Shown here one piece after another: positions 1,611 to 64,000 of a DNA stretch of 64,000 nt. A program made the position numbers and the translations under genes. Origin of the DNA: an uncultured Alphaproteobacteria bacterium (GTDB lineage: Bacteria; Pseudomonadota; Alphaproteobacteria; Rhizobiales; Afifellaceae); NCBI GenBank assembly GCA_963814905.1, contig CAWFEM010000008.1:141282-205281 (forward strand), given 5' to 3'. A model generated the notes under the pieces. That model made no database searches and had not been told where the DNA came from. It saw only the letters and a program-made list of their open reading frames with translations. Numbering within the stretch: position 1 is the first letter of the stretch; every line of letters begins with the position of its first letter.

Positions 1611-1643
1611 GCCGCCAATCGCCAATTCAACCTGGAGGGCTTG

Positions 1644-2417: not shown

Positions 2418-2439
2418 GGTCGAAAAACCCGCGCTTTTC

Positions 2440-2843: not shown

Positions 2844-2871
2844 GGTCGTTGAGACGTCACTCGAACAAAAA

Positions 2872-2900
2872 GGCTCGATCCATTCGGATCGGGCCTTTTT
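2872..2900 (+). terminator. Rho-independent terminator after rpsT
   Basis: ggctcgatcc-attc-ggatcgggcc forms a 10-bp stem with one G-U pair. It is followed by TTTTT, 29 nt after the rpsT stop. Confidence 0.7.
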
Positions 2901-3483: not shown

Positions 3484-3951
3484 ATGCGTTCGGCCGCAAC
3501 GGGGGTGCTTTGTCTGATGCCGCAGGGGTATCTGGCCGATGCGACGCCGAGGGAGACGTGGGACGTCCTGGCGAGTGAGCCGAAGGCTGCGCTCGTCGAC
3601 GTGCGCACCGCCGCGGAGTGGAGCTATGTCGGCCTGCCCGATCTCTCTGCGATTGAAGTCCCGCTGTTGCGTGTCGAGTGGCAGCTGTTTCCCTCCGGCG
3701 CCGTCAATCGAGAGTTCGTTGAGGCGTTGTCGGATGCGTTGGACACGGCGGGCGTCGGGCGGGACGGGCCGCTCTACTTCATCTGCCGCTCCGGCGCGCG
3801 CAGCGCCTCGGCGGCGGCGGCGATGACGGAGGCGGGTTATGCGCGTTGCTACAACGTGGCGGGCGGCTTCGAAGGGCCGCGCGACGCGGAGGGGCACCGC
3901 GGCACGGTTGAAGGCTGGAAGGCGGCGGGTCTGCCGTGGGTCCAGGCGTGA
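3484..3951 (+). CDS. Rhodanese-like (sulfurtransferase) single-domain protein
   Basis: The track ORF contains the active-site loop context ...LYFICRSGARSASAAAAMTEAGYARCYNVAGGFEG (CRSGxR). The start is uncertain; the in-frame ATG at 3517 (MPQGY...) is an alternative. Confidence 0.75.
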   Translation: MRSAATGVLCLMPQGYLADATPRETWDVLASEPKAALVDVRTAAEWSYVGLPDLSAIEVPLLRVEWQLFPSGAVNREFVEALSDALDTAGVGRDGPLYFICRSGARSASAAAAMTEAGYARCYNVAGGFEGPRDAEGHRGTVEGWKAAGLPWVQA

Positions 3952-4018
3952 GCGTCATTCCTCGGTATGCGTGTGCGTTTGAGAACAAACACATGAAATT
4001 TGATCTTGGAGGCCTTGA

Positions 4019-5470
4019 ATGTCAGCGGGTGCGGCAAGCGAGCGGGAGTTCGCCGGAAAAGACCCCGATGGGGCCGATTCTGCGAACAAAAAAGAAGCCG
4101 CCGGCATATGGGATCGCGTAAGACGCCGGCTACGCGCGGAATTGGGTGAAGACGTTTTCAGTTCTTGGTTCGCCAGAGTCGATCTTGAGAGTACCGACGC
4201 GGGCGTCGTACGCCTTTCGGTGCCGACGGTCTTTCTTAAGGGATGGATCAAATCCCATTACGGTGACCGCATGCTCGCGCTTTGGCGCGAGGAGGATGCG
4301 AACGTGCGCCGCGTCGATGTCCTGCGGCGGACGGCGCTCAGGGTGGTTCAGGAGGAGCCGCGTTCCGCATTGGCCGGCCGGCCCGCACAGGCGCCGGCGG
4401 CCGAGATTGCCGGCGATCGCTTCGGCGGCTCGCCGCTCGATCCGCGGCTGACTTTCGTGACCTTTTGCGAAGGCCGTTCAAACGACGTCGCATGCCGCGC
4501 CGCGCGTGCCGTCGCATCTGCGCCGGAAGGGAGCGCGCCGCCCTACAACCCGCTCTATATCCATGCGGGCGTGGGGCTCGGGAAGACGCACCTCCTTCAG
4601 GCCATCGCCAACGAGGCGCGCGCGCTCAATCCGAGCCGTCGCGTCCGCTACCTGACGGTGGAGCGCTTCACGATCCAGTTCGTCGGAGCGTTGCGCGACC
4701 GCTCCGCGCTCGACTTCAAGGAGCAGCTTCGCTCGATCGACATCCTCCTGATCGACGACATGCAGTTCCTGACCGGGCGCGCCGTGCAGCAGGAGTTCTG
4801 CCACATGCTGAACCAGCTCCTCGACAGCGGCAAGCAGGTGGTTGTCGCCGCCGATCGGCCGCCGGCGGAGCTGGAAGGGGTCGACGAGCGCGTGCGCTCG
4901 CGAATGAAGGGCGGTGTCGTCGTCGGCATGGCGCCACCGGACCTCGCCATGCGCCGGCGCATATTGGAGAACCGGCTCGCCGCCGCCTGCGACCGCAACC
5001 CGAGCCTCGTCATCCCCGAGCCGGTGCTCGACTACGTGGCGCAGGTGGTGACCAGCAACGGCCGCGATCTCGACGGAGCGCTGAACCGTCTCGTCTGCCG
5101 CTCCGAATTCTCCGACGCGGCGATGACGATGGAGGTCGCCGAGATGGCGATCGCCGACCTCGTCGGCGTGCGCGAACCGAGGCGCATCCGCATCGAGGAC
5201 ATCCAGAAGGTCGTTGCCAGCCACTACAACGTCTCCAAGCAGGACCTTCTGTCGGCGCGGCGTACCCGCGCCATTGTGCGACCGCGCCAGATCGCGATGT
5301 ACCTGGCGAAAACGATGACGCCGCGCTCCTTCCCGGAGATCGGCAAACGCTTCGGCGGACGCGACCACACCACCGTACTGCATGCTGTGCGTAAGGTGGA
5401 GGAGCTTGCCGCCGCGGACGAGACGCTGGCCCAGGAGATCGAGCTTTTGAAGCGCTTGATCCAGGATTAG
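4019..5470 (+). CDS. dnaA: Chromosomal replication initiator protein DnaA
   Basis: 483 aa with GGAGG 6 nt upstream of the ATG. It has N-terminal [17 protein letters not shown], Walker [11 protein letters not shown], Walker B LLIDDMQF, and the C-terminal DNA-binding domain ...[10 protein letters not shown]...[15 protein letters not shown]. Confidence 0.97.
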
Positions 5471-6746: not shown

Positions 6747-7948
6747 GTCGCGGCCCCGCCGCGCCGGATGCCTTGCCGTTAGAACCGCCCGCCGCGACGC
6801 CCGCGCCCGACCGCGTGACGCTGAGCGCGCTCGCGCTCACCGACTTCCGCAACTATTCAACCGCGCGCCTCGCGCCGGAAGCAGCGCTTGTGGCGCTGAC
6901 CGGCGAGAACGGCGCCGGCAAGACAAACCTGCTTGAGGCGATCTCGCTGCTGACACCCGGACGCGGGCTCCGCCGCGCGCGCTACGAGGAGATCACGCGG
7001 ATCGGCGCGCCTGCGGGCTGGGCCGTGTCCGCAACGATTTCGCGCAACGGCGAGGAGGCCCGCCTCGGCACCGGGCTTGCAGAGAACGGCGCTGGGGACG
7101 CGCGCCCCCAGGATCAACGACGCGTCGTTCGGATCAACGGCGCGCCGGCCGCGTCCGCCGATCTTCTTCTCGAATATCTCCGCGTGCTTTGGCTGACGCC
7201 GGCCATGGATGGGCTCTTCACCGGTCCGGGGTCGGAGCGGCGGCGCTTCCTCGACCGGCTCGTCCTGGCGATCAACTCCGCCCACGGACGCCGCGTCAGG
7301 GAATTCGACAGGCTGATGACACAGCGGAACCGCCTGCTCGACGAGAATGCCGGCGCACGATGGCTCGACGCCGTGGAGGCGGAGCTTTCCGGCCGCGCCA
7401 TCGCCGTGGCGCTGGCGCGCGCGGAGACGGTGACGCTCCTTTCCGCCCGCATGGAGCGCGCGGAGGCTTCGCTCTTCCCCGCCGGGCGGCTATCGCTTCT
7501 CGGCGACTTCGACGCTGCGCTGGCCGGACGCAGCGCCGCGGAGGCGGAGCTTGCCTATCGCGAGGCCCTAGGCCTCGGCCGTGCCGCCGACCGGGCCGCA
7601 GGCCGGACCCTCTCCGGCCCGCACCGCAGCGATCTCGACGTCGTTCTCGTGGCAAAGGAGATGCCCGCCGCCCGCTCCTCGACCGGCGAGCAGAAGGCGC
7701 TGCTGATCGGGCTGATCCTCGCCTATGCCGAGATCGTCGCGGAAACGAGCGGGATGACACCGCTCCTGCTCCTCGACGAGGTGGCGGCGCATCTCGATCA
7801 GGGCCGGCGTCTGGCGCTTTTTGAGCGGCTTTCGAGGCTTGGCTGCCAGGCGTTCCTGACAGGTGCCGACCCGGCGCTTTTCGCTGACCTGCCGGCCGCC
7901 GCCGTCCGCTTTCGGGTGGCCGCGGGGACCGTCGGTCCGCTAGAGTGA
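6743..7948 (+). CDS. recF: DNA replication and repair protein RecF
   Basis: Walker A GENGAGKTNLLEAISLL, signature-like STGEQKALLIGL, and Walker B LLLDEVAAHLD are present. The GTG start at 6743 overlaps the dnaN TGA (GTGA). Confidence 0.93.
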   Translation: MSRGPAAPDALPLEPPAATPAPDRVTLSALALTDFRNYSTARLAPEAALVALTGENGAGKTNLLEAISLLTPGRGLRRARYEEITRIGAPAGWAVSATISRNGEEARLGTGLAENGAGDARPQDQRRVVRINGAPAASADLLLEYLRVLWLTPAMDGLFTGPGSERRRFLDRLVLAINSAHGRRVREFDRLMTQRNRLLDENAGARWLDAVEAELSGRAIAVALARAETVTLLSARMERAEASLFPAGRLSLLGDFDAALAGRSAAEAELAYREALGLGRAADRAAGRTLSGPHRSDLDVVLVAKEMPAARSSTGEQKALLIGLILAYAEIVAETSGMTPLLLLDEVAAHLDQGRRLALFERLSRLGCQAFLTGADPALFADLPAAAVRFRVAAGTVGPLE

Positions 7949-7964
7949 GCCAAAGGCATCGGCC

Positions 7965-8576
7965 ATGGATCCCGCCGCTCTCGCAATCTTCGCGCTCGTA
8001 CTCTTCGTCGCCGCCGCTTCGCCGGGACCGGCGATCGTGGCCCTCGTCGCGCGTGTGCTTATCCAAGGGACAGCGGGCGCGTTTGCATACATGCTCGGGC
8101 TCGCCGTCGGCGACCTCTTCTGGTTGACCTGCGCGGTTCTGGGCTTGGCTTTCGTCGCGAAGACGTTTGTGTGGCTGTTCCTGGCGCTGAAATATGCGGG
8201 CGCCGCCTACCTCCTTTATCTTGCGTGGCGGATGTGGACGGCGCCGGCCGAGGTGGCGACTACCGATGCGCCGAAGGCGGAGCACCCCTTCCGCCTCTTC
8301 CTGACCGCGCTTTCGATCATGCTTGGCAACCCTAAGGTGATGATCTTCTACCTCGCTTTGCTACCCAATCTGATCGATCTCGCCCACGTTTCCGCGCTCG
8401 GCTTTGCCGAACTGGCCGTGGTCACGGTCCTCGTGGTGACCACGGTTGACGGGGGCTACGTGCTGATGGCGGCGAGGGTCGGGAGGCTGCTTCGTCGGCC
8501 CACAATTATCCGCTCCGTGAGACGGGCTTCCGGCGCGCTCATGGCCGGCGCCGCGGCCGTTGTCGCAAGCCGCTGA
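7965..8576 (+). CDS. LysE/RhtB family amino-acid exporter
   Basis: 203 aa polytopic membrane protein. It has the family-typical N-terminus ...AASPGPAIVALVARVL and overall LysE-like length and topology. Confidence 0.85.
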   Translation: MDPAALAIFALVLFVAAASPGPAIVALVARVLIQGTAGAFAYMLGLAVGDLFWLTCAVLGLAFVAKTFVWLFLALKYAGAAYLLYLAWRMWTAPAEVATTDAPKAEHPFRLFLTALSIMLGNPKVMIFYLALLPNLIDLAHVSALGFAELAVVTVLVVTTVDGGYVLMAARVGRLLRRPTIIRSVRRASGALMAGAAAVVASR

Positions 8577-8661
8577 AAAACCTTAATTTTCCGGCATAAA
8601 GAAAGCGCTCGTGAAGGCCCTTTTGGGGCTTCATTTCCATGCCCGGAATGACCATCTATAA

Positions 8662-11157
<2,496 letters not shown>

Positions 11158-52674: not shown

Positions 52675-53784
52675 TTATGCTCTGCCGGCCTTCTCTTCGC
52701 GGGCGGCCGCCGCGGCGACGCTGCCCGGATCTTCTTCCGGTGTGACAGTTATCCTTGTCGGTGCCGCCCGCACCGCCGCACGGCGGCGCTGGGCGAAGCC
52801 CGCAAGCGCGATCGAGACGACGAGGGTCGTCCCGTTGAACAGCGGCTCCACGAAGAAGGCGCCGCCGAGCTGCTGAATCCCCGAAATGCCGACGGCGAGG
52901 ATCGCCACGCCGAAGATTGTTCCCCAGACGTTGACCCGGCCGGGCTTGATCGTCGTCGATCCGAGAAAGGCGCCGACCAGCGCGGGCAGAAGATAGTCGA
53001 GCCCGACATTCGCCTGCCCGATCCTGAGCTTCGCGGCGAGCACGCAGCCGGCGAAGCCCGCGATCAGCGCGGAGCCGACGAAGACGCCGATAATGTAGTA
53101 GCGAACCGGAATGCCGTTCAGCGCGGCCGCCTTCTCGTTGGCGCCTATCGCATAGACGTGCCGCCCGAGCGGCAATCGCTCGCTCATGATCCACAGCGCT
53201 ATGGCCAGCGCGAGGACGTAGAGGGCGGGGATCGGAATGCCGAGGACGGAGGTCGTGTTGATCGCGATGAAGCTGGGCGAAAGCGAGCCGACGAGCTGGC
53301 GCCCGTCGGTGAACCACAGCGCCAGGGCGTAAAGCACGGTGCCGGTCCCAAGCGTGGCGATGAACGAGTCGATCTGCGCCACCTCCACAAGGAGGCCGTT
53401 GAAGAGGCCGACAAGCGCGGCGCACACAAGCACGGCCAGGATCGCAAGTGGCCACGGCACGCCGTATTTGACCTGCAGACCGATCGCCAGGATGTGCCAC
53501 ATCACGATGCCGAAGCCGACATTGAGGTCGATGCGGCCTGCCATCATCGGAACGGTCGCCGCCAGCGAGAGGAGGGCAATGATCGCCTTGTCGGCGAGGA
53601 TCGAGCGGAAGTTCAGGTAGGTCGGAAAGGTCCTGGGCAGGAGCAGCGAGAAGAAGATGATGAGCAGGACCGTCAGGATCGGCAGGCCGTAGACCGGAAT
53701 CAGCCGCAGGATCTGGCGGCCCCGAGAGAGGCTGGCCAGCTCCGAGCGCGTCGGCTCGAGCGCGTTGGACCTAATGGACGGCAT
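52675..53784 (-). CDS. CUT2-family ABC transporter permease
   Basis: Trimmed to ATG 53784, giving 369 aa. It is polytopic with the family blocks ..MAGRIDLNVGFGI.. and ..GSTTIKPGRVNVWGT... It overlaps the ATPase 3' end by 14 nt. Confidence 0.85.
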   Translation of the reverse strand: MPSIRSNALEPTRSELASLSRGRQILRLIPVYGLPILTVLLIIFFSLLLPRTFPTYLNFRSILADKAIIALLSLAATVPMMAGRIDLNVGFGIVMWHILAIGLQVKYGVPWPLAILAVLVCAALVGLFNGLLVEVAQIDSFIATLGTGTVLYALALWFTDGRQLVGSLSPSFIAINTTSVLGIPIPALYVLALAIALWIMSERLPLGRHVYAIGANEKAAALNGIPVRYYIIGVFVGSALIAGFAGCVLAAKLRIGQANVGLDYLLPALVGAFLGSTTIKPGRVNVWGTIFGVAILAVGISGIQQLGGAFFVEPLFNGTTLVVSIALAGFAQRRRAAVRAAPTRITVTPEEDPGSVAAAAAREEKAGRA

Positions 53785-55426
53785 TGCGGCCACCGCCGGC
53801 TTCGTGGGGATTCGCGTAGACGCCCATTCGCCCCACGCGAGCGGAGGCCGCCGCGAGCAGGTTCTCCACCGACAGATCGTGGGCACCGAGCTCCGCAACG
53901 ACGCGGCCGCGGTCGAAGACCAGCGCGCGATGGCAGACCTTGGCGACTTCCTCGAAATCCGTCGAGACGATGATGATCGCCGCGCCTGCCTGCAGAGCGA
54001 CGTCGAAGAGCCGATAGATCTCGGCCTTGGCGCCGACGTCGACGCCCGCCGTCGGATCCTCGAAGATGTAGACCTTGCTCGCTAGGTGAAGCCAGCGTCC
54101 CACGACCACCTTCTGCTGGTTGCCGCCGGAGAGGAGTTCGATGGCGAGGTTCGGATCGTTCGGCCGCAGCCCGACCTTGCGGCCTAGATCCAGGGCCGCG
54201 TGGTTCTCGCGGCGCGGCGGCAGGAAGGAGAAGAGGCCGAGCCCTGCGGCCAGCGGATTGAGGAACAGGTTCTCCCTGACGCTCAGATTGGGCATCACGG
54301 ATTCGCCGACCCGGTCGGCGCCGACCATGTTGATGCCGCACGCCATCGCCTGTCCCGGGGAGTCGACGTCCAACGCATCACCGTCGAGCATCGCACTGCC
54401 CGATGTTATCGGGAAAAGCCCGAAGAGGGCGCGGCCGATGCACTCCTGTCCGGCGCCGCGCAGGCCGACGAACCCGACGACTTCGCCGGCATGCAGCGAG
54501 CAGTCGACCGGACCGACGTCCTCTGTGATCATCGCCTTCAAGACGAGGCGCGCCATCCCCTCGCGGTGCGCCGGGCGGCGGAACACTTGCGACGGCTCGC
54601 GCCCGACGATCAGCAGGATCGTCTCCTCCGGTGTCGTCTCCGACAGACGGCGCTCGCCGGCGACGCGGCCGTCGCGCAGCACGACCATGCGGTCGGCGAT
54701 CTCGAATACTTCGTCAAGCCGGTGCGAGACGTAGATCATCCCGACACCGCGATCGCGCAGTCTGCGAAGCGCGGAGAAGAGCCGCACCACCTCGTCGGCG
54801 GGGAGACTCGCGGTCGGCTCGTCGAGCACCAGAATCTCCGCCTCGGCGGCCAAAGCGCGTGCGATCGCGACGAGCGATTTCTCGGTCCGGGTGAGGCTCT
54901 CGATGCGCACGTCCGGATCGATGTCGGCGCCGAGGATCTCAAGCGCCGCCGCCGCGCGTTCGCGGGCCGCGCGCCAGTTCACCATGCCGATCCGCCGCGG
55001 ATAGCCGAGCGTGAGGCAGATATTCTCGGCGACCGTCATCCAATCGATCAGCCCGAGGTCCTGATGGATGAAGGAGATCGGCAGACGGCGGAGCATATGC
55101 GCGGCATCGCGGCCGCGATATTTAACCGCGCCGTCGTCGAGCGTGTAGACGTTTGCAAGGATCTTGATGAGCGTGGATTTGCCGGCGCCGTTCTCACCCA
55201 GGAGAGCGACGATCTCGCCGGCGCCGACCTGTAGGCCGACCTGGTCGAGCGCCCGCGTCCCGCCGAACTGCTTGGAGATGTCGTGCATCACCAGAAGCGG
55301 CTCGCCGCGGTTCGCGGCCGCGCCGGCGTCGCTGCTTACGCTGGTTGACCCAACGGGCCGCCCTTCGCCATCCACCCGGCTCACTCCTCCCGTCCCCGGT
55401 TCGCCTAGTCGACCGAAGCCCCGCAT
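53771..55426 (-). CDS. CUT2-family ABC transporter ATP-binding protein (duplicated ATPase)
   Basis: Walker A GENGAGKSTL, Walker B ILVLDEPTA, a second signature LSGGNQQKVVVGRW and a second Walker B IFEDPTAGVDV are present. The start is uncertain: ATG 55426 has no SD, while the in-frame GTG at 55375 follows GGGAGGA. Confidence 0.9.
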   Translation of the reverse strand: MRGFGRLGEPGTGGVSRVDGEGRPVGSTSVSSDAGAAANRGEPLLVMHDISKQFGGTRALDQVGLQVGAGEIVALLGENGAGKSTLIKILANVYTLDDGAVKYRGRDAAHMLRRLPISFIHQDLGLIDWMTVAENICLTLGYPRRIGMVNWRAARERAAAALEILGADIDPDVRIESLTRTEKSLVAIARALAAEAEILVLDEPTASLPADEVVRLFSALRRLRDRGVGMIYVSHRLDEVFEIADRMVVLRDGRVAGERRLSETTPEETILLIVGREPSQVFRRPAHREGMARLVLKAMITEDVGPVDCSLHAGEVVGFVGLRGAGQECIGRALFGLFPITSGSAMLDGDALDVDSPGQAMACGINMVGADRVGESVMPNLSVRENLFLNPLAAGLGLFSFLPPRRENHAALDLGRKVGLRPNDPNLAIELLSGGNQQKVVVGRWLHLASKVYIFEDPTAGVDVGAKAEIYRLFDVALQAGAAIIIVSTDFEEVAKVCHRALVFDRGRVVAELGAHDLSVENLLAAASARVGRMGVYANPHEAGGGRNAVH

Positions 55427-55500: not shown

Positions 55501-55674
55501 GCCAGGCAAATTCCGAGTCTAATTCACGGCGACAGTCGTCGCTTCACACTAGATTTAACGTAAGGAAATCAGTAAAGGTGTCAATCTGATTTTTGGGCGA
55601 TGTCGCTGAGATTCCCGCCGCGGTGCGGGGCCAGCGGCGGTTTCTCGCTAAAGGCGCGCAAGCGAAGGAGCGGT

Positions 55675-56469
55675 ATGCCACCACAATCTGTCAGACAACT
55701 TTTCCGAGAGGACCTGACAAGCGATTGGGACGCGCTGCCGCCGGGCGCACGCCTCGGTGACCGGCTCTGCCAGCGAATGGTCACTTTGATCGAACGTGGC
55801 GAGTTCAGCGAGGGCGGACGGCTTCCGGCGGAGAGCGAGCTCGCCTTGCGCTTCGGGGTGTCGCGCCCGGTGATCCGGGAAGCGTTGTCGCGCCTGCGAA
55901 TGATGGGGGTCATCATTTCGCGCAAGGGGTCGGGAAGCTACGTGCAGAAGCGCGCCAGCCCGCCCTCGGACGTGCCGGCGATCGGGTTCGGTCCGGTCAG
56001 CAGCCTGGCGCAGGTGCGTAAGTGTTACGAGTTTCGGATGAGCTTCGAGGGCGATGCGGCGTATTACGCGGCGCAGAACCGCACCGCCGAAACGCTGCTT
56101 CCCATGAAGGACGCGCTCGATCGGATGGCGCGCGCGGTCAACGAAGGCGCGCTCGGCATGAGCGCCGACCTGGAATTCCATTTCGCCGTTGCCCGCGCGT
56201 CCGGGAACGAGTTCTTCGAGGCGGTGATGGAGGCGATGCGGACGCCTTTGGAGTTCGCCGTCAATCTCGCGCGCAGCCTGACGCTGACGCGGCCGCTCGA
56301 GCACCTGCTGACGGTGCAGGCTGAACACGTCGCCATGTTCGACGCGATCGAAGCCGGGGACAGGGAGGCCGCTCGTCTCGCGATGCGAACGCACATCGGG
56401 AATGCGTGCGAGCGGGTCTTCGAGGGGCCGGGCAAAGGCCAGGGCGAACCGGAGGCCGACGCAAAATGA
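55675..56469 (+). CDS. GntR family transcriptional regulator (FadR subfamily, FCD domain)
   Basis: Trimmed to ATG 55675, preceded by GAAGGAG. The HTH is LPAESELALRFGVSRPVIREALSRLRMMGVIISRKGSGSYV. The C-terminal all-helical FCD-like domain contains ..DLEFHFAVARASGNEFF... Confidence 0.9.
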   Translation: MPPQSVRQLFREDLTSDWDALPPGARLGDRLCQRMVTLIERGEFSEGGRLPAESELALRFGVSRPVIREALSRLRMMGVIISRKGSGSYVQKRASPPSDVPAIGFGPVSSLAQVRKCYEFRMSFEGDAAYYAAQNRTAETLLPMKDALDRMARAVNEGALGMSADLEFHFAVARASGNEFFEAVMEAMRTPLEFAVNLARSLTLTRPLEHLLTVQAEHVAMFDAIEAGDREAARLAMRTHIGNACERVFEGPGKGQGEPEADAK

Positions 56470-56482
56470 GCGTCCGAAACGC

Positions 56483-57460
56483 GTGAGCCTGCCCCGCGTC
56501 TTCGTTCCGCATCCGATCCACGCTGACGGGCTTGCCAGGCTGGCGGAGCATTTCGTCGTCGATGCCCCGCTCAGCCAGGATGAGGACGAGCAGTGGCTGT
56601 CGTTCTCTATGGCCGACGCGGTCGTCGTCAGAAATATCGGGATCGACGCCGAGCTGATCGCGGCGCTTCCACGTCTCAGGGTGATCGCCAAGCACGGGGC
56701 CGGGGTCGACAACATCGACATCGCCGCGGCGACCGCGCGCGGTATCGTCGTCGCGAGCGTTCCCGGCGGCAATGCGGATGCCGTCGCGGAGGCGACCGTG
56801 ACCATGATGCTCGCCGCACTGCGGCGTGTTCCGGCCGTGCATGAAATGGTCGTCGGCGGGCGCTACGCGGCGCGCTGGGAGCTGCAATACGAACAGCTCC
56901 TCGATCGGACTCTGGGGCTTGTGGGAATCGGGAATATAGGCGCGCGCGTCGCGCGTATATGCGCGAGCGGGTTCAGGATGCGCGTGCTGGCCTACGATCC
57001 GGGGCTCTCAGAAGCGGCCGTCAAGGAGCGCGGGGCGGAGAAGGTGGGGAGCCTCGAAGCACTCCTGTCGGCGTCCGACGCCGTCTCCCTGCATGTGCCG
57101 CTGACGGCGGAGACCCGCCACATCATCGGCCGGGAAGAGCTGAAGGCCATGAAGCCGACCGCGATTCTCGTCAACGCGGCGCGGGGGCCGCTCATCGACG
57201 AGCGCGCGCTGGCGGAGGCTTTGCACGACGGACGGATCGGCGGCGCGGCGCTCGACGTCTTCGAGGTCGAGCCCCCGGCACCGGACAATCCGATCCTGAC
57301 GGCGCCAAACGTCGTGCTTTCGCCCCACACCGCCGGCAACACGGTGGCGGCGGCGCGCACGCTTGCGCTCGCATCGGCCGACATTGCGATCTCCGTCCTC
57401 TGCGGCCGCCGGCCGGAGGGATTTCTCAATCCCGAGGTCTGGGAGCGACGGCGAAAATAG
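56483..57460 (+). CDS. D-isomer-specific 2-hydroxyacid dehydrogenase (phosphoglycerate dehydrogenase-like)
   Basis: Blocks LGLVGIGNIGARVA (GxGxxG), VNAARGPLIDE and LSPHTAGNT (catalytic His) are present. The start is assigned to the GTG at 56483, which is uncertain because the track ORF extends to 56402. Confidence 0.85.
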   Translation: MSLPRVFVPHPIHADGLARLAEHFVVDAPLSQDEDEQWLSFSMADAVVVRNIGIDAELIAALPRLRVIAKHGAGVDNIDIAAATARGIVVASVPGGNADAVAEATVTMMLAALRRVPAVHEMVVGGRYAARWELQYEQLLDRTLGLVGIGNIGARVARICASGFRMRVLAYDPGLSEAAVKERGAEKVGSLEALLSASDAVSLHVPLTAETRHIIGREELKAMKPTAILVNAARGPLIDERALAEALHDGRIGGAALDVFEVEPPAPDNPILTAPNVVLSPHTAGNTVAAARTLALASADIAISVLCGRRPEGFLNPEVWERRRK

Positions 57461-57550: not shown

Positions 57551-58504
57551 ATGGGTGAGATTCTCGGCATCGTCCTGCCGGTCTTCGGGCTGATCGGCAT
57601 CGGGGCGGCGGTCGCGTGGATGAAGCTTCTCGGCGAGGCTTCGGGCGAAGCTCTGTCGGAATTCGTCTTCGTCGTCGCGATCCCGCTCCTGATCTTCCGC
57701 ATCATGGCAACCGCGGATTTGGGCGGCGTCTCGGCATGGCGTCTCTGGCTCGCGTTCTTCGCCGCCTTCGCCGTCGTCTGGATCGCCGGCACCGTGCTGA
57801 CGCGCCGCTTCTTCGGCCGGGATGCGCGCGCCGGGCTCGTGGCTGGACTGGCCGCAGCCTACGGGAATACCACGCTGATCGGCATTCCGCTCGCATTCGC
57901 CGCCTTCGGAGCGGAGGGATCGGTTCCGATGGCTCTCATCGTCGCCGTGCAGCTTCCGGTGATGATGACCGCCGTGGCGCTTCTGATGGTGCGGGCCGAG
58001 CGAGACGACAATACCAAGCCGGCGGCTCCGCGGGTCGGCGCGCTCCTTCGTTCGATCGCGGAGAACCTGGTGCGCAATCCGATCGTTATCGGCCTCGCCG
58101 CCGGCCTGGCGTGGCGCCTTTCGGGCGTCCCGCTTTCCGGCCTGCCGGCCGATTTGGTGAACCGCCTTGCCGACGTCGCGGGCACCCTGGCGCTCTTCGC
58201 GCTGGGGATGACGCTCAAGCGATACGGCATCCGGGGAAATGTTTCCGCGGGCTTCGCGCTCACGGTCCTCAAGCTCCTGGCGATGCCGGCGCTTCTCCTT
58301 CTTTTCGCGCGCCTCGTCGGTCTTCCGCCGGTTGCCGCCAAGGTCGCCGTCATCGCCGCAGCCTGCCCGACCGGCGTGACGCCGTTCCTGGTCGCCGGCC
58401 GGTTCCGCACAGGCGAGGGTCTCGCATCGACCACGATCACGCTGTCGACGGCGCTCGCGGTCGTGTCCGCGGCGCTTTGGCTCAACGTCATCGGCTGGCT
58501 CTAG
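57551..58504 (+). CDS. AEC (auxin efflux carrier) family transporter
   Basis: 317 aa with about 10 TM segments. MGEILGIVLPVFGLIGIGAAVAW... is the family-typical N-terminus. Confidence 0.85.
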   Translation: MGEILGIVLPVFGLIGIGAAVAWMKLLGEASGEALSEFVFVVAIPLLIFRIMATADLGGVSAWRLWLAFFAAFAVVWIAGTVLTRRFFGRDARAGLVAGLAAAYGNTTLIGIPLAFAAFGAEGSVPMALIVAVQLPVMMTAVALLMVRAERDDNTKPAAPRVGALLRSIAENLVRNPIVIGLAAGLAWRLSGVPLSGLPADLVNRLADVAGTLALFALGMTLKRYGIRGNVSAGFALTVLKLLAMPALLLLFARLVGLPPVAAKVAVIAAACPTGVTPFLVAGRFRTGEGLASTTITLSTALAVVSAALWLNVIGWL

Positions 58505-58525: not shown

Positions 58526-59227
58526 CTATTTCGGCTTGGACGCGAGGTAGCGGTCCTTGGTCTCCGCGTTCATGGGGTAAAGGCCGGGGAGGGACGCGCC
58601 CTTCTCCACCTCCGCCACGATCCACGCCTCCATGCGCTCCTGTTCGGGCGCCTCCGCCAGCACTTCGTCCACGAGCGCCTGCGGGATGACGACTGCGCCG
58701 TCCCCGTCGAGAACGACGATGTCGTCGGGCATCACCGCGACCCCACCGCAGCCGATCGGCTCCTGCCAGCCGACAAAAGTCAGCGCGGCGACCGAAGGCG
58801 GCGCTGCGCCGCCCTGGCACCAAACGGGGAGGCCGGTCTCCTTCACGCCGGCGAGATCGCGCACCATGCCGTCGGTGACCAATGCCGCCACCTGGCGCTT
58901 GACCATGCGGGCGCAGAGGATGTCGCCGAATATCCCGGCATCCGTCACGCCCCTCGCGTCGGCGACCACCACGCAATCCGGCGGCATGGCCTCGATCGCT
59001 GCGCGCGTGGAGGTGGGCGAGGACCACGACGCGGGGGTCGCAAGATCCTCGCGCGCCGGCACGAAGCGGAGCGTGAAGACGCTGCCGACCACGCGCGGCT
59101 GATTTGGGTGCAGCGCCTGCGGACCGCGCATCCAGATATTGCGCAGCCCCTTCTTCAGCAGGACCGTCGTTATCGTCGCGGTCGAGGTCTGGGCGAGAAT
59201 TTCTTTCACGTCCGGATTGAGCGGCAT
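58526..59227 (-). CDS. RraA-like / 4-hydroxy-4-methyl-2-oxoglutarate (HMG/CHA) aldolase family protein
   Basis: Trimmed to ATG 59227, giving 233 aa. Blocks are ..TATITTVLLKKGLRN.., VVVADARGVTDAGIFGDILCARM and GDGAVVIP, typical of the RraA fold. Confidence 0.8.
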   Translation of the reverse strand: MPLNPDVKEILAQTSTATITTVLLKKGLRNIWMRGPQALHPNQPRVVGSVFTLRFVPAREDLATPASWSSPTSTRAAIEAMPPDCVVVADARGVTDAGIFGDILCARMVKRQVAALVTDGMVRDLAGVKETGLPVWCQGGAAPPSVAALTFVGWQEPIGCGGVAVMPDDIVVLDGDGAVVIPQALVDEVLAEAPEQERMEAWIVAEVEKGASLPGLYPMNAETKDRYLASKPK

Positions 59228-59447
59228 GGCCCTTCTTCTTTCAAAAGTCGGCGAGGTCGACGCCGGGCACCAATAGCTTTGGAAAGCATGGCGGGTCCAG
59301 TCGTGGGGGAGCGGCATCGTCTCCGGCCCTTGTCACCGGGAAGCACCGTCTCGCGTCATGGGAGGGTTAAGAGCCGGATTCGGCGGAACACCGCGCCTTG
59401 TGGACGAAGCGTCGTGCAAGCCGGCGAAGAACGGTCGCGTCTCGCGA

Positions 59448-59477
59448 TTGACCGGACTTCTCTCCACGGCGCAATAT
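59448..59477 (+). promoter_or_regulatory. Candidate sigma70-type promoter of the dioxygenase operon
   Basis: TTGACC (59448-59453), an 18-nt spacer, then CAATAT (59472-59477). It lies about 29 nt upstream of the ATG 59506, which is preceded by GAGGAGGAGG. Confidence 0.35.
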
Positions 59478-59505
59478 CATCGCAGGTTGCGGTGAGGAGG
59501 AGGCC

Positions 59506-61335
59506 ATGCTCGGGAGACTGGCCGAGGCGTTGTTCGCGCAGATCAATCGCGTGCGCGTTTGGCACCGGCTGCCATTCCTGCCGTTGCGTATCGCTAATCT
59601 CCTGATCATCCGTCGCGGCCTGCGCCGCCTCAACCTTCACGATACGCAACGCGGCGGCTTTCCGCGGCCCGAGAACGACGTCGGGCCGGAGTTGTATCGC
59701 GTCGGCCGCACGGTCGATGGCAGCTACAACGATCTCGCCACACCCGCGATGGGCATGCGCGGCATGCGCTTCGGCCGCAACGCCCCCGTCGACAGCCTCA
59801 AGATCCCGACGGCGCGCGACATCATGGAGCCGAACCCGCGCGAGGTGAGCCGCCGGCTCCTGGCGCGGCGTAACGGCGAGTTCCACGCCGTCCCCTATTT
59901 GAACGTCTTCGCCGCCGCCTGGCTGCAATTCCAGACGCATGACTGGTTCGGCCATCCGCGCGACGATCAGAATCCGCATGAGATCCCGCTTGCCGACGGC
60001 GACGAATGGCCGAGCGCGGAGCGCAAGATCCGCTTCGGCCGGTCGCAGCCCGACAAGGAAGCCTATGCAGATCGCGGTCTGCCGCCGGCCTTCGTGAACA
60101 CCGAATCGCACTGGTGGGATTGCGGCCAAGTCTACGGCAAGGATGAAACGCGTCAGCAGGCACTGCGCACCGGGGTGGAGGGCAAGCTCAAGGTCGGGTC
60201 GGACGGTCGGCTCGAAAAAGAGGCGACGGGGCTTGAGCTGACCGGCGTCAACGACAATTGGTGGGTCGGTCTGTCGCTGCTCCACACGCTCTTCACGCGC
60301 GAGCACAATGCGATCTGCGACCGGCTGATCGCGGCCTATCCGTCGCGCCGCGGCGACGACGAATGGCTCTACCAGAAGGCGAGGCTCGTCACCATCGCCG
60401 TGATCGCCAAGATTCACACCGTCGAATGGACGCCGGCGCTCCTGAACAACCCGACCATGCGCTTCGCCATGCGCGCCAATTGGTGGGGCGCCTTCGGCGA
60501 GACCTTCTACCGCGAGCGCGGGCGCGTCACCCAGGGCGAGACGCTGCAGGGGATTCCGGGCTCCGTGACCGATCACCACACCGCGCCCTATTCGCTGACC
60601 GAGGAGTTCGTCGCCGTCTACCGGATGCATCCCCTGATGCCGGATGTCTTCGATTTCCGCTCGCTTGCCGACGATTCGCCGATACGCGGCGCCGAAGCGC
60701 TCGATTTTCGCGGTGTCTCCGGCAAGCGCACCGTCGACCTTTACGAGCGCATGTCGCAGGCCGACGCCGCCTATTCGCTCGGCACCCGCAATCCCGGCCA
60801 GGTCAGGCTGCGCAATTATCCGAGCGGGCTCTCGCACTTCGAGCGGCAGGATTCCCTTTCGGGCACGGAGAGCAGCGACTTCTTCGATCTCGGGACCGTC
60901 GACGTCGTGCGCGACCGCGAGCGCGGCATCCCGCGCTACAACGATTTCCGCCGCATGCTGCGCATGCCGCCTTTCGAGACGATCGATCAGATCACGTCGA
61001 ACAAGGAATGGGCGGCGGAGATCGGCGCCGTCTACGGCGGCGACGTGGAGAAGGTAGACACCATCGTCGGACTTCTCGCCGAGGACCTGCCGGAAGGCTT
61101 TGGCTTCTCCGACACGGCGTTCCGCATCTTCATCGTGATGGCATCGCGGCGGCTGAAGAGCGACCGCTTCTTCACCGTCGACTTCACCTCCGATATGTAC
61201 ACGCCGGAAGGCATGGACTGGATCAATCGCACCTTCATGACGGATGTGCTTTTGCGCCATATGCCGGAGCTTGAGCCGGCGCTGCGCGGGGTAAAGAACG
61301 CGTTCTTCAAATGGCGGGAAGCGAAACCGCAGTAA
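59506..61335 (+). CDS. Haem peroxidase-cyclooxygenase superfamily protein, plant alpha-dioxygenase (alpha-DOX/PIOX)-like fatty-acid dioxygenase
   Basis: 609 aa. The distal-His block is FAAAWLQFQTHDW (His codon 59938-59940). The radical-Tyr/proximal-His block is EEFVAVYRMHPLMP (Tyr codon 60619-60621, His three residues later). Other blocks are LFTREHNAICD, IAKIHTVEWTP and DRERGIPRYNDFRR. It is colinear with plant alpha-DOX as I remember it. Confidence 0.85.
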   Translation: MLGRLAEALFAQINRVRVWHRLPFLPLRIANLLIIRRGLRRLNLHDTQRGGFPRPENDVGPELYRVGRTVDGSYNDLATPAMGMRGMRFGRNAPVDSLKIPTARDIMEPNPREVSRRLLARRNGEFHAVPYLNVFAAAWLQFQTHDWFGHPRDDQNPHEIPLADGDEWPSAERKIRFGRSQPDKEAYADRGLPPAFVNTESHWWDCGQVYGKDETRQQALRTGVEGKLKVGSDGRLEKEATGLELTGVNDNWWVGLSLLHTLFTREHNAICDRLIAAYPSRRGDDEWLYQKARLVTIAVIAKIHTVEWTPALLNNPTMRFAMRANWWGAFGETFYRERGRVTQGETLQGIPGSVTDHHTAPYSLTEEFVAVYRMHPLMPDVFDFRSLADDSPIRGAEALDFRGVSGKRTVDLYERMSQADAAYSLGTRNPGQVRLRNYPSGLSHFERQDSLSGTESSDFFDLGTVDVVRDRERGIPRYNDFRRMLRMPPFETIDQITSNKEWAAEIGAVYGGDVEKVDTIVGLLAEDLPEGFGFSDTAFRIFIVMASRRLKSDRFFTVDFTSDMYTPEGMDWINRTFMTDVLLRHMPELEPALRGVKNAFFKWREAKPQ

Positions 61336-62312
61336 ACGCCGCGCCGCTTGCGGCGGGGTCGGATCGGAACATGGCTCGACATTTGCGGATACCGGGCTTG
61401 GCTGATCTCTTCACCGCCGATGAGGCGGGGTCGATCCGCACGCTCGACGCGCATCCGCGCATCGATCGCGTCTTCGACCCGGAGGGTCCGCTCCTGACGC
61501 GCATCCTGCGCGCGCGCATCCGTACAGTCTTCCATATCGACGGCCGGCTCTGGCCCGCCTTCCTGCCGCGCGGCGACGAAGCTCGTCAGAGGGACGGGGA
61601 GGCGCTACATGCGCGCCTCAGCAGCCACGCGCGCCGCAACGCCTTCGACGTCGACGCGCTCGACAGTCTCGCCGCTCTGCTGCTCGCGCCGGACGCCACC
61701 CGTCCGGCGATCGGAGAGGCGATGCAGCAGGCCGTGGGGCGCGCCTTCCATTCCGGATTCCAGGCGACGCCGGAGACCTATGCCGCCGCCGACCGCCTCG
61801 CGAACTGGCCGCAGGCCGGGCCCTTGCGGTCGTTGTGGATGACGCTTTCCGGCTCCATCCAGCGCTCGCGGCGCGTGATCCTGGAGGCGGCGAAGAACGA
61901 TCCCTATTGCGCCCACGCCATCTCGCTGGCGCTTCCGAACATGATCGCGAGCTTCGAGCGGATGCGGGCGCTCCGGCGCGCGACGCCGGACCTGACGGAG
62001 ATGCGCTCCACGGCCGCGGCGCTCAGTGTCATACGCGGTCCGCGCACGCTGATCCGCGGCGTGCGGCCGCTCGTGCTTCCCGCCGATCCGCGGCTCGCGC
62101 TGCGCCGTCCGAACGTCAAGATCGACGTGCCGGAGACGAAGAAGCCACTCAGGCGCGGTGCGCTCGTCCGCTTCGATCGCGGCAAGGCGCAAAGCGTCGA
62201 CCACCGGCTCGTCTTCGCCGAGGACAATTGGTCGGCCTGCCCGGCGCGCGACTGGGTCCCGGAGCTCTTTGCCGAGATATGGCGGCGCGCCATTCGCCGA
62301 GGTGAGCCGTGA
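61311..62312 (+). CDS. Orphan protein in the dioxygenase operon (no family recognised; possible distant P450-like C-terminus)
   Basis: 333 codons from ATG 61311, which overlaps the dioxygenase 3' end by 25 nt. ATG 61371 is an alternative start. Codon usage is coding-like, and the stop overlaps the GTG of the next gene (GTGA). The C-terminal ..FAEDNWSACPARDWVPELFAEIW weakly resembles a P450/CYP74 Cys-ligand loop. Confidence 0.6.
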   Translation: MAGSETAVNAAPLAAGSDRNMARHLRIPGLADLFTADEAGSIRTLDAHPRIDRVFDPEGPLLTRILRARIRTVFHIDGRLWPAFLPRGDEARQRDGEALHARLSSHARRNAFDVDALDSLAALLLAPDATRPAIGEAMQQAVGRAFHSGFQATPETYAAADRLANWPQAGPLRSLWMTLSGSIQRSRRVILEAAKNDPYCAHAISLALPNMIASFERMRALRRATPDLTEMRSTAAALSVIRGPRTLIRGVRPLVLPADPRLALRRPNVKIDVPETKKPLRRGALVRFDRGKAQSVDHRLVFAEDNWSACPARDWVPELFAEIWRRAIRRGEP

Positions 62313-63643
62313 ACGACGACCCGATCTTCCGGCCGCTGCGCTTCAAGAGCGGGCTCAGGGTGAAGAACCGCATCTTCCGCTCGTCGATCTCCGGGCAGTT
62401 CGACAACGAGGACGGCTCCGGCACGCAGACCCGCATCAACTGGGAGGCGCGCTTCGCGCGCGGCGGGGTGGGCGCCATCATCTCCTCCTACGTGCCGGTA
62501 ATGATGCGCGGCCGCATCCTTCCCTTCTACGCCACCATCCATCGCGACGAGCACATTCCGTTCTGGCGGACGGTCGGCGAGCAGGCGCGCAAGTTCGAAT
62601 GCCGCTTCATCATGCAGCTCAGCCATTCGGGGCGGCAGCAGGACCGGCCCGGCGTGTCCAACCGCTGGCGCAAGGCGCTCTCCTCCACCTCGCGCACAGA
62701 ATCGCTGCACGGCTTTCCCTGCCAGGCGATGACGCGCTGGCAGATCGACGACGTGATCGACGCCTTCGGCCACGGCGCGCGGCGCGCCCAGGAGGCGGGG
62801 CTCGACGGCGTCGAACTGCACGCCGCGAACGGCTACCTCTTCACGCAGTTCTTGAGCTCCGGCATCAACGACCGCACCGACGAATATGGCGGCTCGCTTT
62901 TTAATCGCGCCCGCTTCCTGCTCGACGTGATCGCCAGGGTCCGAGACTTCGTCGGCCCGGGCTTCCACCTCCAGGTGAAGCTCTCGGCGATCGACCAGAA
63001 CGACGTCATCCCCTGGGAGCCGAAAGGCGACGGGCTGGCGGAGACGGTGCAGGTGGCGAAGTGGGTGGAAGCGGCCGGCGCCCACGCGATCCACGTCTCC
63101 ACCGGCAGTCTCTTCCCGCATCCGCTCAATCCGCCCGGCGGCTTCTCCTTCAACTCGATCGCCGCGACCTACGACGCCATGATCTCGTCGGGCACGCGCA
63201 CGATGCGCAACTACCTGCTCTTCCGCTACCACCTGCTGCGCCCGATCTTCGCGTTCGTCTGGGAGCGCAAGAAGAAGCTCAATCCGCCTGAGGGTGTCGG
63301 CCTCGACGAGGCGCGCGCCATCAAGCAGGCGGTCTCCATTCCCGTGATCTCGACCGGCGGCTACCAGGACGCGCGGCTGATCCGTTTGGGGATCGAGGAA
63401 GGGTCGTTCGACGCGGTTGCGATCGCGCGGCCGCTCATCGCCAATCCCGACCTCGTGCGCTGGTTCGAGAAGGGCTACGATCTGCCGGAGCGGCCCTGCA
63501 CCTATTGCAACAAGTGCCTCTTGAATGCGCCGAAGAATCCGCTCGGCTGCTACGAGCTGCCGCGCTTCGACGGCGACGTGGAGAGGATGCTCGCCGAGAT
63601 CCTCTCCATCTACGACACCGCCCCGAACTACCGGGTCACTTAG
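62309..63643 (+). CDS. NADH:flavin oxidoreductase, Old Yellow Enzyme family
   Basis: 444 aa. Blocks are GVGAIISSYV, FIMQLSHSGRQ, DGVELHAANGYLFTQFLSSGINDRTDEYGGSLFNRARF and AVAIARPLIANPDL. Confidence 0.9.
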   Translation: MNDDPIFRPLRFKSGLRVKNRIFRSSISGQFDNEDGSGTQTRINWEARFARGGVGAIISSYVPVMMRGRILPFYATIHRDEHIPFWRTVGEQARKFECRFIMQLSHSGRQQDRPGVSNRWRKALSSTSRTESLHGFPCQAMTRWQIDDVIDAFGHGARRAQEAGLDGVELHAANGYLFTQFLSSGINDRTDEYGGSLFNRARFLLDVIARVRDFVGPGFHLQVKLSAIDQNDVIPWEPKGDGLAETVQVAKWVEAAGAHAIHVSTGSLFPHPLNPPGGFSFNSIAATYDAMISSGTRTMRNYLLFRYHLLRPIFAFVWERKKKLNPPEGVGLDEARAIKQAVSIPVISTGGYQDARLIRLGIEEGSFDAVAIARPLIANPDLVRWFEKGYDLPERPCTYCNKCLLNAPKNPLGCYELPRFDGDVERMLAEILSIYDTAPNYRVT

Positions 63644-63659
63644 GGAACGGAGCGAAGCT

Positions 63660-64000
63660 ATGCTAAGTCCCGATCCCCCGGTCACGCTCGTTCAAGAGGT
63701 GGGCGACCGCGCTCGGCGCAGACGCTTCTGGACTCTCGGGCCGATCCTGCTGGTCCTCGTCATCCTCGCGATCGTCGCCATCGCCAATATCTGGCGCCTC
63801 TACACCAACGAGCCGGTTCGCTACGCCAATATCGGCGACCACTTCAAATACGGCTCGATCGGCAGCGAGCCGGAGAGCGGGCTTCCCTATTGGATGTGGC
63901 GCGCGCTGCCGATCATGTTCGAGAACGAGCTCGGGCCGGACGGGCTCTCCGTCTTCGGGTTCCTCTACGAGGCGGGGCGCGATCTGCCGATCGGCGTCTC
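63660..64000 (+). CDS. Membrane-anchored hypothetical protein (N-terminal part; continues beyond the window)
   Basis: ATG 63660 follows GGAACGGAG, 17 nt after the OYE stop. One TM segment (FWTLGPILLVLVILAIVAIANIW) is followed by DHFKYGSIGSEPESGLPYWMWRALPIMF. No CxxCH or other diagnostic motif is seen in the visible part. Confidence 0.55.
   Translation, partial: MLSPDPPVTLVQEVGDRARRRRFWTLGPILLVLVILAIVAIANIWRLYTNEPVRYANIGDHFKYGSIGSEPESGLPYWMWRALPIMFENELGPDGLSVFGFLYEAGRDLPIGV

Follow-up and report, generated by a model that had tools for sequence, protein, structure and literature searches.

The window analysed here, a 64,000-nt stretch of contig CAWFEM010000008.1 (assembly GCA_963814905.1) from an uncultured soil alphaproteobacterium of the Afifellaceae, closes with a block of four genes at 59506-64000. 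They encode an alpha-dioxygenase-type haem protein (DOX, gene 1), a protein of a family without annotation that we call the orphan (gene 2), a flavoprotein of the Old Yellow Enzyme (OYE) family (gene 3) and a membrane-anchored protein that is cut by the window end (gene 4); their coordinates are collected in Table 1 together with those of neighbouring features. An initial annotation, made from the sequence letters, had described them as tightly packed same-strand genes, and the list of open reading frames (ORFs) and a reading of the junctions agree with this layout in every feature. Three complete same-strand ORFs are listed (59506..61335, 61311..62312 and 62309..63643), and gene 4 begins at ATG 63660. 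As the annotation had claimed, the stop codon of the orphan and the GTG start of gene 3 share the tetranucleotide GTGA at 62309-62312, with GAGGTG just 5' of it, and gene 4 starts 17 nt past the stop of gene 3, across a 16-nt spacer that contains GGAG. AGGAGG precedes the ATG of the DOX gene. Two starts had been offered for the orphan, namely ATG 61311, the first ATG of its ORF (333 aa), which overlaps the DOX stop ending at 61335 by 25 nt, and ATG 61371, which lies 35 nt downstream of that stop. Since homologues are 313 aa long and begin with MARHLRIPGL, and the gene call on an identical contig of 1.3 kb is likewise 313 aa, we place the start at ATG 61371 and regard the earlier one as unlikely.

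Some 60 nt 5' of the DOX start, the series GATTGAC ... GCGCAATATnATC ... GGTTG ... GGAGG is invariant in six orthologous loci, among which the rest of the intergenic region is unalignable. In the window this footprint consists of GATTGAC (-35-like, 59446-59452), GCGCAATATCATC (-10-like, ~59469-59481), GGTTG and the Shine-Dalgarno sequence GAGGAGGAGG, followed by ATG 59506. It was not called by a consensus sigma-70 scan, and we infer that it is likely a promoter or an operator. Consensus scans of the coding strand found no promoter- or terminator-like sequence inside the block, which is weak evidence for a single transcript; no Rfam family matched in the region, and the GC content of the block is the same as that of its flanks. 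The genes share a strand, overlap or are minimally spaced, and keep their order across taxa. As far as sequence can tell, the four genes form an operon, which is supported by this near-zero or overlapping spacing, the lack of internal signals and the conserved upstream footprint.

Table 1. Features of the four-gene block and of the region upstream of it (positions in the window)
Feature	Position	Strand	Basis or remark
Gene 1, alpha-dioxygenase-type haem fatty-acid dioxygenase (DOX), 609 aa	59506..61335	+	PF03098, PDB sequence matches, motifs
Gene 2, 'orphan', predicted P450-fold protein, 313 aa	61371..62312	+	Start by homologues; AlphaFold2 and Foldseek
Gene 3, putative Fe-S flavoprotein, OYE/FadH N-terminal type, 444 aa, GTG start	62309..63643	+	PF00724, FadH alignment
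Gene 4, RoxA-family di-haem cytochrome c, N-terminally membrane-anchored; 5' 113 codons in window	63660..64000	+	Translation, full-length orthologues
Conserved upstream region, likely control region	59446..59505	+	Phylogenetic footprint, six orthologous loci
ABC ATPase, two ATP-binding domains	53771-55426	-	
GntR/FCD regulator	55600-56469		
D-2-hydroxyacid dehydrogenase	56402-57460		Listed start overlaps GntR by 68 nt, probably mis-set
AEC-family transporter	57551-58504		
RraA-like aldolase	58526-59317	-	

Gene 1 matches the Pfam model An_peroxidase (PF03098) with an E-value of 3.4e-100 over residues 68-590. Its best matches among PDB sequences are the alpha-DOXs of rice (4kvj, residues 14-603, E 8e-120) and Arabidopsis (E 6e-105); lactoperoxidase (9e-25) and the cyclooxygenases (COX) COX-1/2 (~1e-15) follow at a great distance. 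The distal-His motif QTHDWF and the Tyr/proximal-His motif VYRMH align with those of the rice enzyme, and KIHTVEW and ASRRL stand opposite rice KVHTIDW and ASRRL, within which we take His311 and Arg558/559 of the rice structure (Zhu et al. 2013) to be the carboxylate-binding residues. All four motifs (HDW, KIHTxEW, YR[ML]H and SRR) are kept in all of the 11 orthologues and fusion proteins examined. The roles of the distal His, the catalytic Tyr and the proximal His in alpha-DOX have been described (PMC9305512), and cyanobacterial enzymes ~40% identical to plant alpha-DOX are proven alpha-DOXs whose products are 2-hydroperoxides and Cn-1 aldehydes; for homologues from Proteobacteria, the only mention is their inclusion in a phylogeny (PMC9305512; PMC8720084). 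By homology, then, the haem enzyme encoded by gene 1 is of the alpha-dioxygenase type and stands nearer to alpha-DOX than to COX, LDS (linoleate diol synthases) or peroxidases; its predicted product, a 2(R)-hydroperoxy fatty acid, is well supported on the same grounds. The assignment to the plant alpha-DOX type in the initial annotation is thereby upheld, both by the Pfam model that it had named and by the grouping with plant alpha-DOX, with COX far behind.

Gene 2 has no match in Pfam or NCBIfam. Exact-sequence look-ups gave no match for the DOX or the OYE of the window and recovered an identical orphan solely on the 1.3-kb contig. A word-indexed search yielded 17 relatives, and an exhaustive profile search raised the family to 372 representative clusters at E<=1e-3 (116 at E<=1e-30), typically of 290-315 aa and, where source names are available, all called 'hypothetical protein'. 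Conservation was computed on 66 members at ~30% identity. In this set R33, W287, C290 and P291 are invariant, the motif F-x4-W-[SAN]-x-C-P-A is universal ahead of the C-terminal helix, and within the stretch HATxIAVHN H182 is nearly invariant and N190 common. Three translations (P0014-P0016) were left out as frameshifted; in two Microflora-type contigs (L004, L007) of metagenome-assembled genomes (MAGs), frameshifts interrupt the DOX, the orphan and gene 4, probably through long-read indel errors, with pseudogenes as the alternative. Another homologue (P0076, 439 aa) carries a C-terminal tail that corresponds to the OYE N-terminus (…IFTPLRFRNLDVKNRIFRS…) and then degenerates, which probably represents read-through or a frameshift across the overlapping stop and start and not a real fusion.

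AlphaFold2 modelled the orphan with a predicted local distance difference test score (pLDDT) of 74.7 from 14 sequences, and of 93.4 from 66 sequences (predicted TM-score 0.90). For both models, the top 50 Foldseek matches in the PDB are exclusively cytochrome P450s (E ~1e-4, probability 1.00, TM-score ~0.55-0.61, query-normalised up to 0.59-0.62), among them StaP, P450 BM3, AmphL/NysL, OleT, P450SPalpha and P450BSbeta. The model has N-terminal beta strands and a helical bundle with a long central helix (178-204), which is kinked at 186-187, where N190 and the near-invariant His are located; a short helix then leads to strand 226-231, which bears the near-invariant R229, and C290 stands in a loop that runs straight into helix 295-311 at the C-terminus. 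The thiolate Cys of P450s comes directly before helix L. An axial Asn over the iron, at the I-helix/substrate recognition site 4 (SRS4), is characteristic of prostacyclin synthase (PGIS), plant allene oxide synthase (AOS) and the linoleate diol synthase (LDS) and epoxy alcohol synthase (EAS) domains of fungi, that is, of hydroperoxide-converting P450s (PMC13049297). We conclude that a P450 fold is the high-confidence prediction for the orphan, whose topology fits the P450 core. A regex search for canonical P450s in the window and the collected loci found none. The initial annotation had noted an unassigned protein in the position that a P450 occupies in plant and fungal oxylipin pathways, a notion that is strikingly reinforced by the predicted fold and by natural fusions of the orphan with DOX.

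The orphan is coupled to DOX wherever the genomic context is visible. In 7/7 orphan genome loci (alphaproteobacterial MAGs including Propylenella and a member of the Sphingomonadaceae) the order is DOX-orphan-OYE-gene 4. The block is also present with much more distant orphans, in Skermanella aerolata (P0019, WP_429650273.1, 33% identity) with transposases on its flanks and around P0132 (28% identity) with two RoxA-like genes; P0161 lies in a DOX-orphan-OYE series, and further divergent members on short contigs show DOX then orphan or orphan then DOX. The cultured Qingshengfaniella alkalisoli (Rhodobacterales) carries DOX-orphan (orphan WP_146367006.1) on a 517-kb plasmid (NZ_CP042265.1). Natural fusions, like those of fungal Ppo and LDS proteins to which the initial annotation had likened the gene order, occur in both orders, DOX-orphan (P0081, P0125) and orphan-DOX (P0051, P0052, P0133); each of the five represents a different 50%-identity cluster, and the fusions checked retain the Cys-motif region. 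In total, the orphan adjoins or is fused with DOX in ~29/29 independent loci with visible flanks. A metagenome scan with the DOX alignment gave at least 526 DOX loci, of which 80 at ~47-52% identity were classified. The orphan is present in 12 of these 80, in 11 cases directly downstream of DOX and followed by the OYE and one or two RoxA-like genes; another 9/80 have the Fe-S OYE without the orphan, often with RoxA-like genes divergent upstream. In a neighbour-joining tree, all DOXs whose orphan is a separate gene downstream of them fall into a single clade, to which the DOX of the window belongs, and the fusions lie in other lineages. Conservation of the block, which the annotation had made a test of its proposal, is therefore found in genomes, in divergent members and in metagenomic loci, and an arrangement that recurs in 7/7 loci and at orphan identities down to ~28-33% lies far beyond chance.

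In the Skermanella aerolata locus (L009 1-11580, JBNPXK010000059.1), DDE transposase genes stand on both sides of the five-gene module, and a reverse-transcriptase fragment of the group II intron type lies upstream, as does another Fe-S OYE paralogue (849-2252), which is 43% identical and has the same Cys motif. This suggests that the module is mobile and the OYE duplicated. Another contig (L048/L049) has two divergent DOX paralogues at 338-2104 (-) and 7001-8767 (+), with a GMC-family oxidoreductase between them (2161-4047) and no orphan, OYE or RoxA-like gene on it.

Gene 3 matches Oxidored_FMN (PF00724, E 7e-57, residues 6-268). Its top NCBIfam matches, all far under the cut-offs, are Fe-S flavoenzymes of the FadH, BaiCD and bilirubin-reductase types, and its PDB matches are YqjM-type OYEs and FadH. 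It aligns with residues 1-363 of the 672 of E. coli FadH (E 1e-34) and ends where the flavin adenine dinucleotide (FAD)/NADPH domains of FadH begin. HAANGY (the His/Asn pair and Tyr) and a C-x2-C-x2-C-x10-C motif (residues ~397-414), which aligns with the Cys region of FadH, are kept in 7/7 orthologues. Gene 3 thus encodes a flavin mononucleotide (FMN) barrel competent for ene-reduction, with a probable [4Fe-4S] cluster and no built-in NAD(P)H module. The initial annotation was right about the OYE family, as PF00724 and HAANGY indicate; the likeness that it drew to plant 12-oxophytodienoate reductases (OPR) does not hold, the protein being a truncated flavoprotein of the FadH/enoate-reductase type with a four-Cys Fe-S motif. 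An OPR-type OYE was ruled out, YqjM-type OYEs and FadH being closest and OPR3 aligning only over residues ~115-252. An insertion of ~50 residues (~270-320, …GGFSFNSIAATYDAMISSGTRTMRNYLLFRYHLLRPIFAFVWERKKKLNPPEG…) is absent from YqjM-type OYEs and from FadH.

The window fragment of gene 4 comprises RRRR and a transmembrane anchor, then FKYGSIGSE...PYW. Two CxxCH motifs and a RoxA-like_Cyt-c domain (PF21419) are present in its complete orthologues, which are N-terminally anchored and ~520 aa long (range 509-626). Against the PDB, a profile of seven sequences matches RoxA (4b2n, E 1e-18), mainly at profile positions 315-527 and including the C-terminal GN-N-GH, a segment that in RoxA presumably bears an axial His; there are weak matches to di-haem peroxidases and to enzymes like MauG. 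A periplasmic catalytic domain is implied by the positive-inside topology and by the attachment of c-type haem. The earlier label 'membrane protein' is correct for the anchor and incomplete for the whole, given that the orthologues are RoxA-family di-haem cytochromes c. The block of four, all present, has also to be extended by a fifth gene beyond the window, found in all orthologous loci, whose product of ~125-145 aa has four transmembrane segments (4-TM) and matches no Pfam model. In L002-L009, L014, L022 and L036 its gene comes after the RoxA-like one, and in Qingshengfaniella it is encoded separately, behind the orphan. Orphan variants of ~440 aa have it as their C-terminal extension, and in L022, L066 and L093 it makes up the N-terminal part of a second RoxA-like ORF (apparent fusions in stop-to-stop ORFs). 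Because of these fusions, by Rosetta-stone reasoning, the P450-like, 4-TM and RoxA-like proteins probably associate at the membrane. Tandem RoxA-like duplicates were seen 3' of the OYE at L014 10336-13787, L022 7301-10710, L066 9433-12456 and L093 8521-11181; in the second copy of the last three, the 4-TM domain apparently replaces the single anchor helix.

A second type of module, comprising the DOX/orphan fusions and the Qingshengfaniella locus, has no Fe-S OYE and carries one or more FAD_binding_4/ALO flavoprotein oxidases instead, to which some loci add an alpha/beta-hydrolase, a RoxA-like cytochrome or a 4-TM protein. By gene content, the invariant core of both types is DOX plus the P450-like protein, with a flavoprotein and a RoxA-like cytochrome as recurrent accessories. 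A Crp-family regulator adjoins the DOX-orphan fusions; it is of the Crp/FNR family and divergent from both fusion genes (L011 795-1457; L102 8127-8801). Three proteins with guanylate/adenylate-cyclase domains are encoded in the neighbourhood of one of them (L102 438-6669, 14627-17710), which together with the regulator hints at cyclic-nucleotide control. In Qingshengfaniella (L101, NZ_CP042265.1), an EthD-like gene (831-1673, weak Pfam match) and a 137-aa hypothetical one (4162-4575) are embedded in a divergent cluster of FAD-oxidase, RoxA-like and hydrolase genes beside DOX-orphan.

We suggest, with a probability of roughly 0.55, that the region holds the first four genes of a conserved five-gene, membrane-associated module for fatty-acid oxygenation, in which DOX would be followed by a self-sufficient hydroperoxide converter of the P450 type, with the flavoprotein and the di-haem protein as accessories. 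The tyrosyl radical of DOX would oxygenate C-2 of a free fatty acid to give a 2-hydroperoxy fatty acid. The orphan, as a divergent and shortened P450 fold holding haem through Cys290, would then convert this hydroperoxide without O2 or an external reductase, and may steer the unstable compound from spontaneous decarboxylation to a defined product. Such conversion without O2 or external reductase is known from CYP74 enzymes, from prostacyclin and thromboxane synthases and from the P450 domains of fungal DOX-CYP proteins. More tentatively, the Fe-S/FMN ene-reductase could reduce an activated C=C bond (enal, enone or 2-enoate) in a downstream product. Most speculatively, the periplasm-facing RoxA-type cytochrome and the 4-TM protein might tether the system to the membrane and attack, at its outer face, either the lipid or the lipid peroxide, whether through oxidative cleavage or through peroxidase action.

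Self-sufficiency of the orphan is supported by orphan-DOX fusions that lack the OYE and by the OYE accompanying DOX where no orphan is present, and in the modules inspected we saw no gene for a ferredoxin or a ferredoxin reductase. The same occurrences led us to reject the OYE as a dedicated reductase of the P450-like protein as the main model, each being found with DOX without the other. They also bear on the view that the P450-like protein is a conventional or peroxide-driven oxygenase served by a flavoprotein, be it with the Fe-S/FMN protein as electron donor, which would make a new two-component P450 system, or with the OYE as an NADH oxidase, or the FAD_binding_4/ALO oxidases, producing H2O2 that activates DOX and fuels a CYP152-like peroxygenase working on the fatty acid parallel to it. 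A flavoprotein is indeed common to both module types, the OYE, having an Fe-S motif and lacking an NAD(P)H/FAD domain, needs some partner for electron exchange, the H2O2-dependent fatty-acid P450s OleT, P450BSbeta and P450SPalpha are among the Foldseek matches, and alpha-DOX requires H2O2 for formation of its tyrosyl radical (PMC9305512). However, the OYE and the orphan are no obligate redox pair, the OYE retains the His/Asn/Tyr substrate-binding triad of ene-reductases, and the CYP152 matches are no better than those to other P450s, so that we consider this explanation very improbable.

The module might also serve catabolic alpha-oxidation or detoxification, the simpler alternative raised in the initial annotation. 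In that case DOX would take one carbon off a fatty acid, passing through 2-hydroperoxides and Cn-1 aldehydes, the flavoprotein would remove a blocking conjugated C=C bond (as FadH does in beta-oxidation) or detoxify enals, the P450-like protein would do no more than decompose or reduce the hydroperoxide under control, and the periplasmic di-haem protein would be a lipid-peroxide peroxidase. This is in keeping with the alpha-DOX carboxylate-site residues of gene 1, the decay of alpha-DOX products to Cn-1 aldehydes (PMC9305512), the FadH/enoate-reductase type of the OYE, the weak similarity of gene 4 to di-haem peroxidases and the DOX, OYE and RoxA-like sets that lack the orphan; the FAD_binding_4/ALO oxidases and alpha/beta-hydrolase of the second module type would suit degradation via 2-hydroxy or 2-oxo acids. 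We nevertheless regard it as unlikely, since the conserved block contains no aldehyde dehydrogenase or acyl-CoA genes, the flanking genes are not fatty-acid catabolic, and obligate pairing with repeated fusion of DOX and the P450-fold protein is a hallmark of product-defining oxylipin synthases and not of bulk catabolism.

Several points weigh against our preferred reading, DOX followed by a P450-type hydroperoxide converter. None of the 66 orphan members matches PF00067 at E<=10, the family profile finds no P450 among PDB sequences (its sole match, to PdxS over 59 residues, is spurious), and hhalign gives a probability of 0.2% against a CYP101-type profile, a narrow one built from 32 genuine P450s with a mean identity of 60%. 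Across the 66 members, neither of the canonical signatures, FxxGxRxCxG and ExxR, is conserved; FERMR is present in the window's orphan clade, with a Glu that is not conserved family-wide. The P450 link of the orphan lies in its predicted fold, with no link at the sequence level. Equating the invariant Cys290 with the P450 thiolate ligand is an assignment by topology and not by coordinate superposition, and haem binding is putative. Classic chemistry of AOS or hydroperoxide lyase (HPL) is not directly transferable because a 2-hydroperoxide has no adjacent double bond, and the roles given to the OYE and the RoxA-like protein are guesses. Finally, 59/80 of the classified metagenomic DOX loci have no partner at all, 32 of these 59 with at least 1.5 kb of downstream sequence; DOX can apparently work alone, since most homologues at ~50% identity have no orphan, OYE or RoxA-like neighbour. 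Clustering of the neighbours of these 'DOX-alone' loci found no consistent recurrent partner, only small clusters without a Pfam match or a GMC oxidoreductase or metallo-beta-lactamase.

The undetectable P450 signature (PF00067, hhalign) would also fit an orphan that has no haem and serves DOX as a structural or regulatory subunit, being a relic of the P450 fold whose likeness to DOX-CYP proteins is superficial; Cys-less P450 homologues are known to serve as helper proteins of glycosyltransferases. With 289-328 aa, the orphan is shorter than every P450 in the Foldseek lists (>=358 aa), and it evolves faster than its neighbours (74% identity vs 85-92%). Alternatively, the module could act on a non-fatty-acid carboxylate in a natural-product pathway, for which, as for the haem-free subunit, the variable flanking genes and the one copy flanked by transposases may speak. 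Yet an invariant W-x-x-C-P-A at the expected thiolate position is hard to explain without a cofactor, several invariant Arg occupy topologically plausible propionate-binding positions, and DOX retains the fatty-acid carboxylate-binding residues. Either version therefore seems rather improbable to us.

The preferred reading can be carried further, in a form that we hold only tentatively and with the odds somewhat against it. The orphan family may be a new minimal (~300 aa) haem-thiolate lineage of the P450 fold, which sequence models miss. Paired with an alpha-DOX-type enzyme, it would be the prokaryotic equivalent of the DOX/COX-P450 oxylipin cascades of eukaryotes, to which it is possibly related by descent; cytoplasmic DOX and P450-like protein, 4-TM tether and periplasmic RoxA-type cytochrome would form a trans-membrane multi-haem assembly, and its product might represent a new class of bacterial lipid mediators or volatiles.

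The genes between 53771 and 59317, upstream of the block (Table 1), appear unrelated to the module, and none of them is conserved alongside it in the seven orphan genome loci.

The closest parallel is found in the fungal DOX-CYP fusions (Ppo proteins/linoleate diol synthases, 8R/9S-DOX-AOS, 10R-DOX-EAS), in which a DOX of the peroxidase-cyclooxygenase superfamily is likewise coupled to a P450-fold partner, there by fusion and here by adjacency, and in which the partner, as we presume for the modelled orphan, transforms the hydroperoxide without external electrons. Unlike these, the module described here is bacterial, its DOX is of the alpha-DOX type (C-2) and not an 8R/9/10-DOX, the orphan of ~300 aa has no P450 sequence signature and bears F-x4-W-x2-C-P-A in place of FGxGxHxCxG, and its fusions occur in both domain orders. 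In a review of 2026, DOX-CYP fusions are considered a fungal feature, and only a single DOX from a prokaryote is discussed (PMC13049297). With plant and cyanobacterial alpha-DOX (rice 4KVK, Arabidopsis 4HHS, CalDOX/LepDOX), gene 1 shares full-length homology and the catalytic and substrate motifs; however, the characterised enzymes work alone and their hydroperoxide decays spontaneously, whereas this clade has P450-fold, flavoprotein, cytochrome and membrane partners. The gene order also mirrors the plant jasmonate route, from lipoxygenase (LOX) via CYP74 AOS and allene oxide cyclase (AOC) to OPR3, and the animal COX-PGIS and COX-thromboxane synthase (TXS) routes, in that a dioxygenase is followed by a self-sufficient P450 and, in plants, by an OYE-family ene-reductase. 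It differs from them in having an OYE that is not an OPR, no cyclase and another type of dioxygenase.

As regards the accessories, gene 4 resembles the RoxA/RoxB rubber oxygenases and, more widely, the superfamily of di-haem cytochrome c peroxidases (CCP) and MauG, which includes the P. aeruginosa 10S-DOX/7,10-diol synthase, in its two CxxCH motifs, PF21419 and best PDB match. It is ~140 aa shorter than RoxA and N-terminally anchored instead of secreted, and the similarity lies mainly in the C-terminal haem domain. Di-haem CCP-family enzymes of P. aeruginosa are reported to oxygenate fatty acids (PMC4496055) and to do so extracellularly (bioRxiv 10.1101/2021.09.08.459554). Gene 3 has in common with E. 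coli FadH and clostridial 2-enoate reductases an FMN TIM barrel followed by a four-Cys Fe-S motif; unlike FadH, it lacks the FAD/NADPH half, keeps the classical OYE HAANGY site that FadH is missing, and has the insertion after residue ~270.

A full-text literature search, with most subscription journals out of reach, found no published description of a bacterial module of DOX, P450-like protein, OYE and RoxA-like cytochrome or of the orphan family; the initial annotation, too, knew of no characterised bacterial operon of such composition. A dioxygenase with a P450 partner is known from eukaryotes; what would be new here is a bacterial version with a family whose predicted P450 fold is invisible at the sequence level and with new accessories. 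Jasmonates, prostacyclin, thromboxane and the fungal psi-factors are all products of dioxygenase-P450 pairs, a logic that would reach into bacteria with the conserved module and the natural fusions described here. The orphan would offer a compact P450-fold scaffold of ~300 aa for studying how a thiolate haem handles hydroperoxides, and it exposes a blind spot of annotation, with 372 clusters labelled hypothetical and Pfam, NCBIfam and profile-profile methods all missing the P450 likeness. Alpha-DOX enzymes are already used for fragrance aldehydes, and diverting their 2-hydroperoxide by means of such a partner could lead to new products. The module is directly testable, as two cultured carriers exist (Skermanella aerolata and Qingshengfaniella alkalisoli). 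The link to a RoxA-type cytochrome and an Fe-S ene-reductase, in turn, suggests an unexplored form of membrane lipid oxidation in soil Alphaproteobacteria.

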